Of a stretch of 64,000 nucleotides of DNA, positions 52,636 to 64,000 are shown piece by piece. Where the stretch lies: the NCBI RefSeq assembly GCF_002854065.1, contig NZ_CP024147.1; one strand, given 5' to 3'. The notes beneath the pieces were generated by a model. The model was not told the origin of the DNA. It saw only the letters and a list, made by a program, of their open reading frames with translations, and did no database searches. Made by a program: the position numbers and the translations under genes. Numbering within the stretch: the stretch's first letter is position 1; every line of letters starts with the position of its first letter. This stretch comes from Escherichia coli (lineage in GTDB: Bacteria; Pseudomonadota; Gammaproteobacteria; Enterobacterales; Enterobacteriaceae).

Positions 52636-53313
52636 TCAAAGCATAAACCGATAACCAATCCCAGTTTCAGTAATAAAATGGCGAGGCCGGGCCGGGTCTT
52701 GCTCCAGTTTTTGTCGCAGATGCCCCATATAAATACGCAAATAATGACTGTGTTCGACCGCGTTTGGCCCCCACACCTGGTTAAGGAGTTGGCGCTGGGT
52801 GAGCACTTTCCCGGCATTATTCAGCAGCACCGCCAGCAGGCGGAATTCAATCGGCGTGAGATGCACCTCTTCCTCACCCCGGTGAATCACGCGGGCGGCT
52901 AAATCGACGGTAACATCGGAGAATTTCACCAGCGGATCGGGCGCGGTGGTGACAGAGTGGCGGCGTAATGCGACGCGCAGACGGGCCTGCAATTCGCCAA
53001 TGCCAAACGGCTTACTCAGATAATCATCCGCTCCGGCATCCAGCGCGGCGATTTTGTCGCTCTCTTCGCTGCGTGCGGAAAGCACAATCACCGGCACCGC
53101 GCTCCACTGGCGCAGGTCGCGGATAAACTCAATCCCATCACCATCGGGCAGGCCGAGATCGAGAATAATCAAATCTGGCTTACGGGTTGCCGCTTCCAGC
53201 AAGCCGCGTTGCAGCGTTTCGGCCTCAAAGACGCGCATCCCGTCGCCCTCCAGCGCCGTGCGCAGAAAGCGACGAATAGCCTGTTCATCTTCAACAATCA
53301 GAACGTTTGTCAC
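52636..53313 (-). CDS. kdpE: Response regulator KdpE (OmpR family)
   Basis: 225-aa ORF with receiver domain and winged-helix output; overlaps kdpD stop. Confidence 0.94.
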   Translation of the reverse strand: MTNVLIVEDEQAIRRFLRTALEGDGMRVFEAETLQRGLLEAATRKPDLIILDLGLPDGDGIEFIRDLRQWSAVPVIVLSARSEESDKIAALDAGADDYLSKPFGIGELQARLRVALRRHSVTTAPDPLVKFSDVTVDLAARVIHRGEEEVHLTPIEFRLLAVLLNNAGKVLTQRQLLNQVWGPNAVEHSHYLRIYMGHLRQKLEQDPARPRHFITETGIGYRFML

Positions 53314-55994
53314 ATATCCTCATGAAATTCTTCAAGTTCAGGAGCGGTTTGCTGGGGAAGTGTAACACGAAAACAGGCACCACCTTCCGGTCGGTTGAAC
53401 GCGGTAATGGTGCCGCCGTGTACATCCACAATCGCCCGACAAATTGCCAGTCCAAGCCCTACCCCCGGTACTGCCGACTCTTTATTCCCGCGAGCAAACT
53501 TATCAAATATCGTCTGCTCCTGGCCTGGCGGAAGACCGGGGCCGTTATCCCAGACATCCAGTTGTAGATTTTCGCCCTCAACGTGGGCATCGATACCAAT
53601 TTCGGCCTGCGCACCCGCATATTTCACTGCGTTCTCCAGCAAATTAATCAGCACCCGTTCAAAGAGTGGCCCGTCAACGTGGATTAAGGTCAGCGGTTCT
53701 GGCAGAGAAAGATTGATGGGCGACGATAAACCCGGTTCCAGCATTTGCAGCGCGCTGCCGACTACTTCTTCCAGCGTTAACCACTCTTTCTTCAAATTAA
53801 AGCCGCCGGACTGAATTCGCGCCATATCCAGTAGATTATTCACCAGTCGGGTAGTGTTCAGCACATGCTGACGAATCTCGCTGGCCTGGCGGGCGTGGGG
53901 TGATCCTTCGCTTGCCAGATCGAGCGTTAAGATTTCTGCCTGACCAAACAGCACCGTAAGCGGAGTGCGTAAATCATGCGAAAGCGCCGCCAGCAGGGCG
54001 TTGCGGATCTGTTCACGTTCGCTTGCCATCCGCGCCTGTTCTTCGCTGGCGGTCAGCGTCAGCCGCTCAAGCGCATTGGCGACTAACAGCGTAAACGTCT
54101 CCAGCAGGCGCTGCTGTTCCGGGATCATCAACTGACGCAGATTCCCCGGTTCCACCACCACCAGCCCGTAGGTTTTCTCACCGCTTTTTAACGGCAAAAT
54201 CTGGTACGGCACGCCGGGTAACGTGTCGGTGCCCGCACCCGCAGGCAGGCCTTTATCAAAACTCCACTGCGCGATGGCATCGTCCCACGGCGTCATTCCT
54301 TGCGGATGTGTTAACGGCTGCAATTTACCGTTGTCATCGGGCAACAACACCTGACTGCGGGCATGAAACGTGGAGGCAATAAATTGTTCGCTGGTGGCGG
54401 CGATGTCCTGCGGACTGCGGCCCACAGCCAGAGCTTTCGACATTTCATATAAGTGCCGTGTGCGTTGTTCGCGGTAACGGGCTACCCGCGCCTGATAACG
54501 CACGCCAGCAGTAAGGTTCCCGATCACCAGCCCGACGGTTAACATCACCGCGAAGGTCAGCAGATATTGCACATCAGAGACGGCGAGCGTGCCGCGTGGG
54601 GCGATAAAAAAGAGATCGAAACTCACCACATTAATGACGGTAGCAACCACCGAAGGCCAGCGTCCATAAAATAGCGCCACCACCACCACGCCAAGTAGAT
54701 ACAGCATCACCAGGTTGGCGGCATCAAACGCCATCAGCCACTGCATGGCAATTAAGGTGATAACGGCGCATAACGCGGCGGCAACCACGCATCCCTGAAT
54801 CTGTACCCGCCACTTGTCTTTAAAAGAGCGGCTATCCGGCGCGTTGTTAATCGTGCGGGCGGGTGGTTCATCAAGCGCGACCAGCACCTGATCGAGATCG
54901 GGGGCGATGCGCGCCAGTCGGTCAGCAAACGTTTCCCGACGCCACCAGCGGCGCGAGGCTGGGCGACCGAGAATAATCTTGCCGAGATTATGTTCACGGG
55001 CATAACGCACTACCGCTTTCTCTTCCGCTGGATCAGAAAGTGTTGCCGTCTCCGCGCCCAGCTCCTGCGCCAGACGTAAGGCGCTGAGAATTGCCCGACG
55101 TTTTTTCTCCGGTAAGCGATGCAGGGCAGGGGTTTCAACATACACCGCGTGCCAGACGCTACCCAGCCGCGCCGCCAGCCGCGCCGCCGCGCGGACCAGT
55201 TTCTCACTGCCGGTGTTATGCCCGATGCATAAAAGGATCGCGTCGCGCGTGTGCCAGACTTTCTCTTCGCCAGGATGCCCCCGCCAGGCGCGCATTTGCT
55301 CATCAACGCGATCGGCAGTACGGCGCAGTGCCAGTTCGCGCAGGGCGATCAGATTGCCTTTGCGGAAAAAATGTTCAATGGCGCGCTCCGCCTGCCCGGC
55401 AATATAGACTTTGCCTTCTTTCAGCCGCTGGCGCAGATCGTCCGGGGGCAAGTCCACCAGCACCACGTCGTCGGCGGCATCGAAAAAAGGATCGGGCACG
55501 GTTTCCCGTACCTGAATTCCGGTGACGCCGCTGACCACATCATTCAGACTTTCCAGATGCTGAACGTTGACGGTTGTGAAAACATCAATGCCAGCTTCTA
55601 GCAGTTCTTCGATATCCTGCCAGCGTTTAGGATGACGAGAACCTGGCGCATTACTGTGCGCCAGTTCGTCCATTAAGATCAGCGCCGGACGGCGGGCGAG
55701 GGCGGCATCGAGATCAAACTCGCTGATGTGCCGCCCACGGTACGCCAGGCGTTTTGGCGGCAGAACAGCCAGCCCTTCCAGCATGGCGGCGGTATCTTTC
55801 CGCCCGTGGGTTTCTACCACGCCAACCACAATATCCAGCCCTTGCGCCCGCAGTCGCTGGGCTTCTGCCAGCATCGCCCAGGTCTTCCCGACGCCTGCGC
55901 AGGCACCGAAGAAAACTTTCAGCTTCCCCCGATGCGGCGCGGCAGTTTGTTCCAGCAGACGATCGGGGTCGGGACGTAAGGGTTCGTTATTCAT
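53310..55994 (-). CDS. kdpD: Sensor histidine kinase KdpD
   Basis: Start set at [14 protein letters not shown] (894 aa); N-terminal KdpD domain with Walker-type GACAGVGKT, Usp domain, TM segments, HisKA (LSHDLRTPL) and HATPase. Confidence 0.94.
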
Positions 55995-56559
55995 CAAGTT
56001 TATCCAGCGCCAGATTGAGTTCGACAATGTTGACGACCGGCTGGCCGATATATTTCACCAGTGGTTGTTGGCTGTATTTTGCGATCAGTTGCGTGAGCTG
56101 TTCAACGCTGAGATTACGCGCTTTCGCTACGCGTGGGATCTGCCAGGCAGCCGCTTGCGGGGTGATGTTATTGTCCAGCCCGCTTGCCGACGCCGTCACC
56201 AGTTCAACCGGAACGTTCGCGCTGGCATCCGGGTTAGTGGCCCGTAATGCAGCAACGCGTGCGGCTATTAGTTTATCCAGCTCAGGGTTACTGACCGCCA
56301 GGTTGCTCCCGCCAGAAGCCTGTGGATTATAGGGCATTTCTGCCGTTGCCGACGGGCGACCATGAAAATAGCCGTTGCCGGTAAAATTCTGCCCGATTAA
56401 TGCCGAACCGCGCACCGTATCACCTTCACGAATCAACGAACCATTGGCCTGCCAGGGAAACCACCATTGCCCCAGCACGGTGGTCAGCAGCGGGTAAACG
56501 CCGCCAGTAATCAATAACAGAAAGATAAATGTCGATAATGCCGGACGTAATCCACTCAT
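55987..56559 (-). CDS. kdpC: K+-transporting ATPase subunit KdpC
   Basis: Start set at [16 protein letters not shown] (190 aa). Confidence 0.92.
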
Positions 56560-58638: not shown

Positions 58639-60312
58639 TCAGGAGAGATATTCCGCCACCGGACCAAGCGCCAGGGCAGGGATAAAGGTCAGTGCGCCAA
58701 CCAGCAACACGGTGCCGATTAACAGGCCAACAAACAGCGGGCCGTGCGTTGGCAGCGTGCCGGAGCTGGCGGGTTGGCTCTTTTTACTCACCAGCGAACC
58801 GGCAATTGCCATCACCGGGATAATCACCCCGAAGCGACCGACAAACATGCAGAACGCCAGTAAACAGTTCCAGAACGGAGAGTTGGCGCTTAATCCGGCA
58901 AAGGCGCTGCCGTTGTTGTTAGCGGCGGATGACACGGCGTACAGCACTTCGCTAAAACCATGCGGGCCAGGGTTGAGCATGGCGCTACGTCCGGCGTCGG
59001 TCATCATTGCCAGCGCCGCGCCCATCAGCACCAGCGTCGGGGTGACCAGAATCGCCAGTGCAGTCAGTTTCATCTCACGTACGTCGATTTTTTTACCCAG
59101 ATATTCCGGTGTACGACCAATCATCAGCCCGGCAATAAACACCGCCAGCAGGACAAACAGCATCATGCCGTAAAGACCAGAACCGACACCGCCGAATACC
59201 ACTTCACCAATTTGCATCAGCCACATCGGCACCATGCCACCGAGAGCGGTAAACGAATCATGCATCGCAATCACCGCGCCACAGGACGCCGCCGTAGTCA
59301 CGACCGCAAACAGGCTACTGACCAGCACGCCGAAACGGCTCTCTTTACCTTCCATATTGATGCTGCTGTCCGCACCCAGCGCCAGCAGATGAGGATTACC
59401 CTGAACTTCTGCCCACATCACCACGCCTACGCAGATGACAAAAATCACTGACATCGCCCACAGCAACATGCGCCCCTGGCGGCGATCGCCCGTCACTTCA
59501 CCAAAGGCAAAGCACAGCGCTGTTGGGATCAAGAAGATCGCCAGCATCTGCACGAAGTTGGTCAGTGCGGTTGGGTTTTCAAACGGATGCGACGAGTTGG
59601 CATTAAAGAAACCACCGCCGTTAGTGCCGAGCATCTTGATCGCTTCCTGAGAAGCCACCGGACCCATTGGTAACAGCTGTTGCGCTCCTTCAACGGTATT
59701 CACCGCCTGATAAGGCTGAAAGTTTTGCAGTGCACCTTGTTGAATAAAAAACAGTGCGATCAACAACGCCACAGGGACTAGCACCCATAACGTGATGCGT
59801 AGCAGATCGACCCAGGCATTCCCGAGTGTGCTCATGCTCTGGCGGGTAAATGCACGGATGAAGGCAAAAATCACCGCAATCCCGCTGGCGGCAGAAAGAA
59901 AGTTTTGCACCGTTAAGCCCGCCATCTGGCTGAAATAGCTCAACGTGGTTTCACCGCTATAAGATTGCCAGTTGGTATTCGTGACAAAGCTGACGGCGGT
60001 ATTCAGCGCCAGATCCCACGACAGCCCCGGCAACTGCTGTGGATTAAGCGGCAGATAGTGCTGACCGAGCAACATAAAAAACAGCACCGCAAGCCCCAGC
60101 ATGTTCAGGCCGAGAATGGCTGAGAGATACTGCTTCCAGTTCATCTCATGGTTAGAGACGCCAGGTAAACGAAAGAGTATACGTTCAACGCCCGCTGTAC
60201 CGGGAAGAGGAATATCATTAATCAACCGTGCCAGCCCGCTACCTAAGGGACGCGCCAGCACCATCAGCACCAGTAAAAACGTGGCGATCAATAAGAACCC
60301 TTGCGCAGCCAT
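58639..60312 (-). CDS. kdpA: K+-transporting ATPase channel subunit KdpA
   Basis: Start set at [16 protein letters not shown] (557 aa); start overlaps the kdpF stop. Confidence 0.94.
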
Positions 60313-60401
60313 CAGAACGCCTCCGCATTGATCAGGGCATAAACCAGATAACCCAGTAATAAAAACACCAGCAACACGCCGGCTATCACGCCTGCACTCA
60401 C
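60312..60401 (-). CDS. kdpF: KdpF small membrane subunit (29 codons, GTG start)
   Basis: Minus-strand GGAGG RBS then GTG AGT GCA GGC GTG... encoding (M)[28 protein letters not shown]. Confidence 0.75.
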
Positions 60402-60470
60402 AGTGCACCTCCAGTGGCCTAAAAGTGATACCGGAAGGGTAGAATTTTGGCTGCAAAGATTTCGCAAAAA

Positions 60471-60495
60471 TCTGCGGACGGGGTGTAAAAAAAGT
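60471..60495. promoter_or_regulatory. KdpE operator upstream of kdpF
   Basis: Minus-strand CCATTTTTATACTTTTTTTACACCCC, a T-rich sequence of the KdpE-operator type, about 70-95 bp upstream of the kdpF start. Confidence 0.6.
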
Positions 60496-60713
60496 ATAAA
60501 AATGGCAAAAGCCATGATTTAACTAATGTTTAGTATTAATTTAACTTTTGTGTAACTTAATTACAGGGTCAATGTAAATAAACCATCAATAAGCAAAAAT
60601 AAGTGGTCGGATGAGTAGTAAAATTACACAAAAGGCGGTACTATTTTCATCAGATAAACAAATTCATTTTTCCGGTGCTATTCACCGGGTAGATACAAAA
60701 GGGGGAGAAAAGT

Positions 60714-60920
60714 ATGGAACTCTACAGAGAATATCCTGCATGGCTTATCTTTTTACGCCGTACTTATGCGGTTGCAGCGGGCGTTCTGACGCTGCCTTTC
60801 ATGCTTTTCTGGAAAGACCGCGCCCGCTTTTACAGCTACCTGCACCGCGTCTGGTCGAAAACCAGCGACAAACCGGTGTGGATGGATCAGGCCGAAAAGG
60901 CAACCGGTGATTTTTACTGA
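60714..60920 (+). CDS. ybfA: Small DUF2517 protein YbfA
   Basis: 68-aa [26 protein letters not shown]..., in the position downstream of the kdp promoter. Confidence 0.8.
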
Positions 60921-60935
60921 TTGCCTGCGCGCTTA

Positions 60936-60963
60936 AGCCAGCCTCGTATCAGGGGGCTGGTTT
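60936..60963 (+). terminator. Intrinsic terminator after ybfA
   Basis: Hairpin agccagcc-tcgtatcag-ggggctgg followed by ttt. Confidence 0.5.
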
Positions 60964-61704
60964 ATGTGTTTTACATCAACGTCTTCCATGATAATTAACA
61001 TGGAAGACGTTTACATCGTGTTATTCATTTCATCACTGTTTTAGCATCAAGTTTCGATAGTATCCTTTTAAAGGGCGGCTCAGGATGCGGTCGCCTCCAT
61101 TGTTGCTCTAAGCAACTATGTCGTCAGAAATCTTCAGTTAGGTTGCATACTCCATTACACACTTTCCTGAAACCTCAGGGGAAGGTGAGAAAGCCCCTGT
61201 CACTTTTGCTCATTCCAGCATCTAAATAAATTCCGAATTTTGCTATTAACATCGCTACCGCAAGAAAAGCAGATAGTAAAGAGAGTAATATATACTTTAT
61301 TGATATATTAAGAATAATTAATTGTTAACATATCTAATGCAATAAGATGTGTTGTTGTTAATAAAAAGCTTATAGATTTATAGTTAATAATTAAAACGCA
61401 TCCGATATTTCAGCTTTTTCTATGCAAGATACAATTTTATAAGGTGTCCATTTTTATATGGAGGCGGTAGCGTGTCTGTTACTAGTGGTTTTATTTGCAT
61501 GGTGAATATATTGGGATTGTTAAATGCATAACGATGTATCCGTTCTGGTCGTTGTAAACATTGCTAATTGCTTAATATTATTAGTGATTATGGCTGGAAA
61601 GATAAAATGTGTGATAAACGGTGATGGATATCACCTTCATGACTAAAAAATAAATAAAAACCCATCAATAAATAATTCATTTATTAAAAAGGACTCATAC
61701 CAGT

Positions 61705-62157
61705 ATGACGGAGTATTATCTCAATGAAACTGTTGTAACTTTTCCCGGGAATATTATTCAGGACAGTACGATTAATATGCTGCGCCTCAGCGATCCCGAC
61801 GCTGCACTCATTATCAGTCGGGGCCAGATGCAGGAAGGAGACGAATTAGCCTCCCAGATTGAACAGCAAATGAAAAAACTGGAGAAACAGGTAAAGGATC
61901 TTCACTACACGCCAGTTCAGGTAACACGGGTAGGGATTAATGACGGTGAACAAGGGCTGGAAATACAGAGCCAGTTTCTCCGGGGTAACGAGCAGGTGTA
62001 CCAGTGTCAGGTGGCATTTGTATTGCCGGGTGAGCGGGTCATGATGGCCTTCACCTACGCCAGAACCACACCGCTGACCCCGGCAGATATGACGCGCTGG
62101 GCTGAAATTAAAAAGAATCTGCGCTTCAGGATGCGGCAGGAAGCCAGGACGAATTAA
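61705..62157 (+). CDS. Eag-family (DUF1795) chaperone of a type VI secretion prePAAR effector
   Basis: 150-aa ORF whose N-terminus (YYLNETVVTFPGNIIQDSTINMLRLSDPDAALIISRGQ) has the DUF1795 pattern; ends 18 bp before an Rhs ORF that begins with a prePAAR motif. Confidence 0.75.
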   Translation: MTEYYLNETVVTFPGNIIQDSTINMLRLSDPDAALIISRGQMQEGDELASQIEQQMKKLEKQVKDLHYTPVQVTRVGINDGEQGLEIQSQFLRGNEQVYQCQVAFVLPGERVMMAFTYARTTPLTPADMTRWAEIKKNLRFRMRQEARTN

Positions 62158-62175: not shown

Positions 62176-64000
62176 ATGGAAGAGGCATTCTGGGCGGCAA
62201 GACAGGGTGATGCCCTGCTGCATACGTCGTTTATGGCAGATGTGCTGGGGGCGGTGCTGGAGGTGGCCGCAAATGTCGTTATTGATGCTCTCATTGTCGG
62301 CACAACCTCGTTACTGGCGGCGTCAGTGGGGTTCACGATGGGGTGCACGGCCGTCGTGCTGACCGGTTTTGTGGCGGGTGTGGCGATGGTGTACACCGGC
62401 GTGACAGAAAAGGTCAGCGAAGCCTGTTCAGCCCTCGCAGATATGCTTTTCCCGCCTCAGATTGAAGGTTACATCCTCACCGGCTCTGGTGACACATGGA
62501 TCAACAGCAAACCTGCCGCGCGGGCAGCGGCGACTGCGGCATCGCGGCAGGACATTGAGGCGCAGGAGGCGCAGTCGAAGGCGGAACAGGAAGAAGCGCA
62601 GCGTCAGGAGGATGCCAGAACGTTCCGGGATGTGGCCGGGGAATATCTGGAAATGGCGGGGGCCATAGCCCTGGCGGTTAACCCGGTGACAGGGCCTGTG
62701 CTGATGTCCCGGGCGCTGCACGACCAGCTCAGTACGGAAGAAGGGCGTTCTGAAATGGTGGATGGCGTGACACATTTTGTGTCGGAACTATGGCAGCCCA
62801 CTGTGGCCAGTGCGGCCCCGGGCTCCACCCCGACCCCTGACGATAAAATCGACTGCCATAAACATCCTTCCTCACTGACGCAGTTTCTCGCACAAAAAAA
62901 AGCTGCCTTTCTGGATGACCCCCTGGGAACGGCCCTTAACCTGCTGAGTCCGGACGGTATGCTGGAAACCGCCTTTCAGGGAGTGAATGCGGTTATTGGC
63001 AGCATCAGTAATCTGTTCAAAGGCGATGACGAGCCGCCCGCAGCGGAATATATCGCGGAAGGCGCGCGGGATGTGCGTATCAACAGCCAGCCGGCGGCAC
63101 GCAGCGGGGCACGCTGTACCTGCGAGGCCAGGGTGGTGAATGAGCCGGGGAACGGGGCGTTTGTGTCACCGGATGTGCGCATTGGCGGTCCGTTACTGGT
63201 GGTCAGGGATATCAGAAGCGGCAGGTCGCAGATAACCCTGGTGGCAACTGTGGCGCTGATGTTTCTTCGCCCGGGCAAAATGCTTTCTAAAATCGCCTGT
63301 TTTGCTGCCAGTGTCGGGATGAGCATGCTGGCGCAGAAGGCCACCAGAGCCCTTCCGCATCCGGTCAATGCCGCCACCGGGGCCAAATACCTTGCCGATG
63401 ACGATGACTTCGATTTCAGTCTGCCGGGCCACTTTCCGCTGGACTGGCAGCGCGTGTACAGCAGTCGTGACGAACGCACGGAAGGAATGTTTGGTCAGGG
63501 CTGGAGTGTGATGTATGAAGTCAGCCTGGTGCGCACACCGGGTAACGCGGACGAAAACTGCATGACCTTTGTGTCGGGCATGGGGCGACGCCTGGATATG
63601 GAAGCCGTGCTGCCGGGGAGCGGGTTTTACAGCCCCGGCGAAGGACTGGCAGTCCGGCGTGGTGAGCAGGGGCACTGGCTTATCAGCAGCGATGATGGAC
63701 AGTTTTTTCTGTTTGAAGCCGACCCGCACAACCCGCAGCGCCAGCGGCTGAAAATGCTGGGCGACCGTAACAGCAACTGTCTGAATCTGTACTACGACGA
63801 CCGGGGACGTATCACTGAAATCAGCGGCGAACAGCAGCGTCCGTGCATCCGTCTGTATTACGAACTGGCGGCGCATCCCCGGCGGATGACACAGATTTAT
63901 CAGCATTTCCCTGAGACTGCACCTTTACTGCTGCGTCGTTACAGCTATGACGAGGCCGGCCACCTGAACGGCGTGTACGACAGCACGGGGCACCTGCTGC
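62176..64000 (+). CDS. Rhs-family polymorphic toxin, N-terminal 608 codons (prePAAR, TMD, PAAR, start of YD repeats); continues past the window end
   Basis: Own translation from ATG 62176: MEEAFWAARQGDALLHTSF (prePAAR AARxxDxxxH), hydrophobic helices aa 21-75, PAAR motifs (TWINSKPAAR; VRINSQPAARSGARCTC), second hydrophobic segment aa 352-388, then YD-repeat sequence (NLYYDDRGRITEISG; YSYDEAGHLNGVYDSTGHLL). No stop before base 64000. Confidence 0.85.
   Translation, partial: MEEAFWAARQGDALLHTSFMADVLGAVLEVAANVVIDALIVGTTSLLAASVGFTMGCTAVVLTGFVAGVAMVYTGVTEKVSEACSALADMLFPPQIEGYILTGSGDTWINSKPAARAAATAASRQDIEAQEAQSKAEQEEAQRQEDARTFRDVAGEYLEMAGAIALAVNPVTGPVLMSRALHDQLSTEEGRSEMVDGVTHFVSELWQPTVASAAPGSTPTPDDKIDCHKHPSSLTQFLAQKKAAFLDDPLGTALNLLSPDGMLETAFQGVNAVIGSISNLFKGDDEPPAAEYIAEGARDVRINSQPAARSGARCTCEARVVNEPGNGAFVSPDVRIGGPLLVVRDIRSGRSQITLVATVALMFLRPGKMLSKIACFAASVGMSMLAQKATRALPHPVNAATGAKYLADDDDFDFSLPGHFPLDWQRVYSSRDERTEGMFGQGWSVMYEVSLVRTPGNADENCMTFVSGMGRRLDMEAVLPGSGFYSPGEGLAVRRGEQGHWLISSDDGQFFLFEADPHNPQRQRLKMLGDRNSNCLNLYYDDRGRITEISGEQQRPCIRLYYELAAHPRRMTQIYQHFPETAPLLLRRYSYDEAGHLNGVYDSTGHLL

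Follow-up and report, generated by a model that had tools for sequence, protein, structure and literature searches.

A T-rich box upstream of kdpF matches the known KdpE operator of the Escherichia coli kdpFABC promoter

In a 64,000-nucleotide stretch of Escherichia coli DNA (hereafter the window), kdpF and its divergently oriented neighbour ybfA are separated by a spacer of exactly 312 bp (60402-60713), which raises the question of whether a T-rich box within this spacer is the operator through which KdpE acts on the kdpFABC promoter (Table 1). An earlier note on this DNA had placed such a box about 70-95 bp upstream of the kdpF GTG. The box, CCATTTTTATACTTTTTTTACACCCC, is real: it was found on the minus strand at 60505..60480, exceeds chance expectation and is conserved across genera, but, counted from the G of the GTG, it occupies -79 to -104 and so lies about 9 nt further upstream than first placed. 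Within the box lie two 6-bp direct repeats of the form TTTAYA, namely half-site S1 (TTTATA, 60500..60495) and half-site S2 (TTTACA, 60489..60484), which are separated by a 5-bp gap and lie 11 bp apart from centre to centre. This arrangement is unique in the window, where a search for TTTATA-N5-TTTACA allowing up to one mismatch returned a single occurrence against 0.26 expected.

Table 1. Features of the kdp-ybfA region, in coordinates of the window.
Feature	Position	Strand	Remarks and basis
kdpE, cognate response regulator	52636..53313	minus	Response_reg and Trans_reg_C; E = 5e-146 to PDB 4KNY
kdpD, sensor kinase	53310..56027 (program-called ORF)	minus	KdpD, DUF4118, GAF_3, HisKA, HATPase_c
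kdpA	58639..60312	minus	ATG overlaps kdpF stop by one base (TGATG)
kdpF	60401..60312	minus	GTG start 60401..60399, 29 codons plus stop ending 60312; translation, RefSeq
Shine-Dalgarno GGAGGT(G) for kdpF	60406..60411	minus	5-6 nt before GTG; sequence
Probable kdpFABC transcription start zone	60429..60433	minus	Published numbering and conservation
Candidate -10 hexamer TACCCT	60436..60441	minus	-10-like conservation; putative
Conserved core-promoter block TTTTGCGAAATCTTTGC	60453..60469	minus	Near-invariant columns, 99 loci
-35-like hexamer TTGCGA	60467..60462	minus	Putative -35 assignment
Equivalent of published 30-bp binding fragment	60475..60504	minus	29/30 match; contains equivalent of 23-bp footprint
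Core KdpE operator TTTATA-CTTTT-TTTACA (nearly certain)	60484..60500	minus	Sequence; half-sites defined in PMC3264566
ArcA-P site, three direct repeats	60516..60558	minus	Exact 43-nt match to AAGTTACACAAAAGTTAAATTAATACTAAACATTAGTTAAATC (PMC3798270 Table S4)
Candidate ybfA core promoter TAGTAA-17-TACTAT	60616..60652	plus	-10 at 60639..60644; putative hexamers
ybfA (DUF2517), divergent neighbour	60714..60920	plus	RefSeq annotation, domain search
Truncated DcrB-related gene	~61705-62031		XJ34 annotation
RHS core-domain fragment	~62251-62583		XJ34 annotation
SymE-family toxin gene	~63241-63555	minus	XJ34 annotation

The KdpE site of the E. coli K-12 kdpFABC promoter has been characterised in detail. 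For KdpE binding and gel shifts, Narayanan et al. 2012 (PMC3264566) used a 30-bp kdpFABC fragment, CATTTTTATACTTTTTTTACACCCCGCCCG, which includes the 23-bp DNase I footprint spanning -72 to -50 (attributed there to Sugiura et al. 1992). The half-sites TTTATA and TTTACA with 5 bp between them were defined there by EMSA and ultracentrifugation, a 21-bp fragment in which S1 and S2 are flanked by 3 bp (5') and 1 bp (3') was sufficient for binding, and the DNA-binding domain bound each half-site with a Kd of 200-350 nM. In a promoter derivative, the half-sites have been numbered -67..-62 and -56..-51 (10.1101/256826). Furthermore, the kdpF/ybfA spacer was the only genomic SELEX target of phosphorylated KdpE (PMC5934670).

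Alignment of the window with this footprinted, EMSA-tested fragment gave 29 identities out of 30, at the same spacing to kdpF, so the footprinted site falls on the box described here and not elsewhere. The published 30-mer matched the window once with one mismatch, against 0.00 occurrences expected. The lone mismatch is at 60478, where the C of K-12 is replaced by T; it falls 6 nt past S2, beyond the minimal 21-bp element, and across 99 aligned loci (see below) this position is C in 89 and T in 7. A second SNP relative to the K-12 promoter, G-to-A at 60447, lies between the putative -35 and -10 hexamers, and the predicted KdpF differs from that of K-12 by two residue changes (T7A and I10L). 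Otherwise the two promoters share species, locus, both half-sites and kdpF spacing: the region as a whole is 98% identical to MG1655 with no indels, so that the distance from box to kdpF GTG is the same as in K-12, and this distance is also constant across genera. The downstream gene order of K-12 is likewise retained, with kdpF, kdpA and kdpB (RefSeq) followed by ORFs matching KdpC, KdpD and KdpE.

Both components of the cognate KdpD/KdpE two-component system are thus encoded alongside the operon. The KdpE of the window matches the E. coli KdpE chains 4KNY and 4KFC (E ~1e-146), and the true start of kdpD is probably internal to the ORF called by the program. An ORF matching KdpC was also recovered by domain search. 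The target gene was also supported: the kdpF product, a hydrophobic peptide of about 29 residues encoded directly upstream of kdpA, scores 27.8 bits with the Pfam KdpF model (PF09604, cutoff 21.2), and its RefSeq annotation is identical to the ORF read here. Translation, Pfam and RefSeq therefore bear out the earlier description of kdpF as a GTG-initiated gene of 29 codons. Closer inspection of the kdpF/kdpA junction corrects a second figure in that description, since the four-base overlap proposed there is in fact an overlap of one base. The junction reads TTC TGATG GCT, and the RefSeq coordinates of strain XJ34 (kdpF ..3449, kdpA 3449..) and of MG1655 (kdpA ..728732, kdpF 728732..) agree in having a single common base. 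The accompanying remark that kdpF is easily missed by annotation holds historically, given its late tag b4513 between b0698 and b0699 in MG1655, but not at present, as RefSeq annotates the gene in every record among the matches listed.

What is established here for the operator is its sequence identity with the characterised site, its position, its conservation and the fact that its cognate regulator is encoded in the window, whereas binding and activation are taken from the K-12 literature. Given the 29/30 match to the published site, the spacing, the conservation and the presence of kdpD and kdpE in the window, the box is almost certainly the KdpE operator of the E. coli kdpFABC promoter, as judged from its sequence, and no observation spoke against this reading. 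Such a site is textbook knowledge, already characterised by experiment, and no new biology follows from its identification; the value of the exercise is as a check only, the site having been recognised from the bare sequence with two minor errors in the figures.

To place the box in an evolutionary context, one genome per species was scanned with a degenerate DNA pattern encoding YALINAEAF, the C-terminus of KdpF; this anchor sits in the kdpF coding sequence and outside the box. The scan returned 120 loci, nearly all from Enterobacterales; conservation figures given here derive from an alignment of 99 kdpF loci, with sequence weighting applied in the ranking of conserved stretches. The box was present in every sampled kdpF locus having enough upstream DNA. 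A strict pattern search located it in 93 loci, in 89 of which the distance from its first base to the start codon is 96-101 nt; in six further loci it occupies the same place, with S2 ending in G or a shift of one base. In the weighted alignment of 99 loci, no stretch of the spacer is better conserved than 60502..60484 (>=0.95). All six bases of S1 are invariant (99/99), S2 reads TTTA in 99/99 followed by C (87) or T (12) and then A (94) or G (5), and the sequence between the half-sites tolerates changes among C, T and A. The box is therefore conserved upstream of kdpF in related bacteria, and GTG is the kdpF start in 97 of the 99 loci.

This pattern bears on the possibility that the tract is not a specific regulator site at all, but an A/T tract that aids RNA polymerase, either in the manner of an UP element or through intrinsic curvature. 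The tract is indeed strongly T-rich and located upstream of the -35 region, and the spacer has been flagged as a SELEX site of both RpoD holoenzyme and H-NS (PMC3946193). However, conservation is position-specific, with A4 and A6 of S1 and A4 of S2 invariant in 99/99 loci while the spacer between the half-sites varies. Moreover, a double substitution in either half-site eliminates binding there, and a minimum of 21 bp was defined by truncation (PMC3264566). We accordingly regard a generic A/T tract as very improbable.

The neighbouring part of the spacer was found to contain a second regulatory element. An AT-rich block at 60516-60558, conserved in ybfA-containing genomes, comprises GTTAMA hexamers at 11- and 22-nt steps and is identical over 43 nt to the ArcA site published upstream of ybfA, which is among the 11 operons that Park et al. 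2013 (PMC3798270) list as activated directly by ArcA. The (T)GTTA-type repeats at 11-/22-bp spacing, the exact published sequence and the ChIP-seq peak reported in PMC3798270 identify this block as a separate element adjoining the KdpE box, from which it ends 10 nt away (60505), or 15 nt from S1; as far as published, it serves ybfA and not kdp. We considered and rejected the GTTAMA repeats as additional KdpE half-sites, owing to their exact match to the published ArcA site; they also begin with G, whereas the first position of KdpE sites is always T (PMC3264566). Among the direct-repeat operators of the OmpR/PhoB family, such as the pho box and the ArcA box, the TTTAYA half-site is specific to KdpE, the neighbouring ArcA repeats being GTTAMA, and KdpE has a single genomic target (PMC5934670).

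PMC3798270 assigns the ArcA site to -136..-94 with respect to the ybfA start, which places the ybfA +1 at about 60652. This position is 7-8 nt past the TACTAT of a candidate ybfA core promoter, which is held within a conserved block, TGTAATTTTACTACTCATCCG (minus-strand reading). That the box itself belongs to ybfA, for example as part of a plus-strand promoter TTCGCA-17-TGTAAA (60462-60467 and 60485-60490) that overlaps S2 and is listed as a ybfA promoter-like sequence in PMC3946193, has a negligible probability, since that entry is a best-match prediction within a SELEX fragment with no mapped start, the start implied by PMC3798270 lies ~160 nt from the box, and 10 loci that have no ybfA within 700 nt upstream of kdpF keep the box at the same distance from kdpF, indicating that the box tracks kdpF rather than ybfA. 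Together, the KdpE box, the ArcA site and the other known elements account for the main conserved blocks of the spacer.

In 89 of the 99 Enterobacterales loci ybfA is the divergent neighbour of kdpF, and in these loci the KdpE operator and the ArcA site, 10-15 bp apart, sit between two divergent promoters. From this adjacency alone, it is conceivable but rather unlikely that the two OmpR-family regulators influence each other, with ArcA-P acting on kdp under anaerobiosis or KdpE-P acting on ybfA; our literature search found no published report of an interaction between ArcA and KdpE sites or of kdp-ybfA coupling.

With the box read as the KdpE operator, regulation of kdpFABC would proceed as follows. 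Under K+ limitation, KdpD would phosphorylate KdpE, a dimer of which would bind head-to-tail to the direct repeats TTTATA and TTTACA, ~60 bp upstream of the transcription start, and activate a weak sigma-70 promoter. The resulting transcript would comprise a leader of ~30 nt, the GGAGG ribosome-binding site and the GTG-initiated, 29-codon kdpF, followed by kdpA, which would be coupled to kdpF through the TGATG stop/start overlap. The exact -10, -35 and +1 are putative parts of this scheme.

Sequence conservation between the operator and kdpF allows these parts to be narrowed down. Two near-invariant sub-blocks, TTTTGCGA at 60469..60462 and TCTTTGC at 60459..60453, make up much of the core-promoter block TTTTGCGAAATCTTTGC, in which counts out of 99 loci are 98-99 for T69-T66, 99 for C64, 99 for T57-T55 and 98 for C53. 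Further downstream, the candidate -10 hexamer TACCCT shows T84 A99 C87 n n T99 of 99 loci, an A at 60429, located 7 nt downstream of this hexamer, is kept in 90/99, and the Shine-Dalgarno sequence GGAGGTG is preserved in 96-99/99. If TACCCT serves as the -10 element, the -35-like TTGCGA would be 20 bp away, which renders the core-promoter assignment uncertain. A consensus promoter scan returned no sigma-70 site in the region, as would be expected of an activator-dependent promoter.

Estimates of the kdp +1 range over a few nucleotides: 60433 from the published half-site numbering, ~60431 when the 23-bp footprint is centred on the box, and 60429 from conservation. We found no primary mapping data for this start in the literature, which provides indirect numbering only (PMC3264566, 10.1101/256826). 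The pattern of TAnnnT and A60429 suggests that transcription may start ~4 nt downstream of the position implied by the published numbering, which may itself be off by about that amount. This spread of a few nucleotides leaves the identification of the operator unaffected. The alignment thus contributes a modest refinement of the known promoter, in that its invariant positions comprise the whole of S1, TAnnnT at 60441..60436, and A60429.

A small number of loci depart from the usual spacing. In three Buttiauxella loci (L070, L081 and L116), one Cedecea locus (L041) and L105, the box was located 149-272 nt before the start codon, compared with ~99 nt elsewhere. In L041, L070, L081 and L116, the added DNA sits downstream of the -10 region, and its sequence (...GAATCCCGATGAGCTTACTCAAGTAAGTGATTCGGGTGAGCGAG...AAGTATGACGGG) resembles an ERIC/IRU repeat, a likeness that is clearest in the three Buttiauxella loci. 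An insertion between the -10 region and kdpF would lengthen the kdpF leader in those loci.

The spacer and its surroundings were also surveyed for RNA structures. In Bacillus, a riboswitch or leader is located upstream of kdp; no Rfam riboswitch or leader of this kind was found within 60200-61100. At a permissive threshold, the sole Rfam match in the same interval was to the greA leader, at the level of chance (60973-61086; 19.9 bits, gathering threshold 60, E = 0.57). A terminator-like hairpin abutting the box (ATGGC-TTTT-GCCAT, 60515..60502) was treated as a chance occurrence, its left arm being poorly conserved and there being no known transcription into it. We also identified an imperfect inverted repeat with 20-nt arms at 60545-60564 and 60615-60634, 85% complementary and 50 nt apart, both arms of which are upstream of both putative starts (kdp and ybfA). 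It was rejected as an RNA hairpin or a paired operator, as the fold was not significant (z = -1.61). Complementarity between the arms is kept in 61% of cells compared with 25-39% in shifted controls, with few compensatory changes, and can mostly be attributed to the separate conservation of the two arms, which lie in the ArcA site and in the ybfA -35 region, respectively. Beyond ybfA, a strong terminator-like hairpin of 12 pairs followed by a T-rich tail (60934-60964, plus strand) begins 14 nt past the ybfA stop and is probably the ybfA terminator.

Finally, we examined the strain background of the locus. The 461 bases around the spacer (60300-60760) match 5423 of 5426 complete E. coli genomes, with kdpF, ybfA and kdpA annotated under the match, and at least five records among the matches listed are 100% identical over this length. 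The haplotype is nevertheless uncommon: 36 of the 5423 matching genomes reach >=99% identity, and the others fall within 95-99%. Differences are also apparent downstream of ybfA, where K-12 carries a full rhsC element while, between ~61700 and 63560, the annotation of the identical strain XJ34 contains only Rhs-locus remnants (Table 1). The Rhs locus thus appears to be degraded in this lineage.
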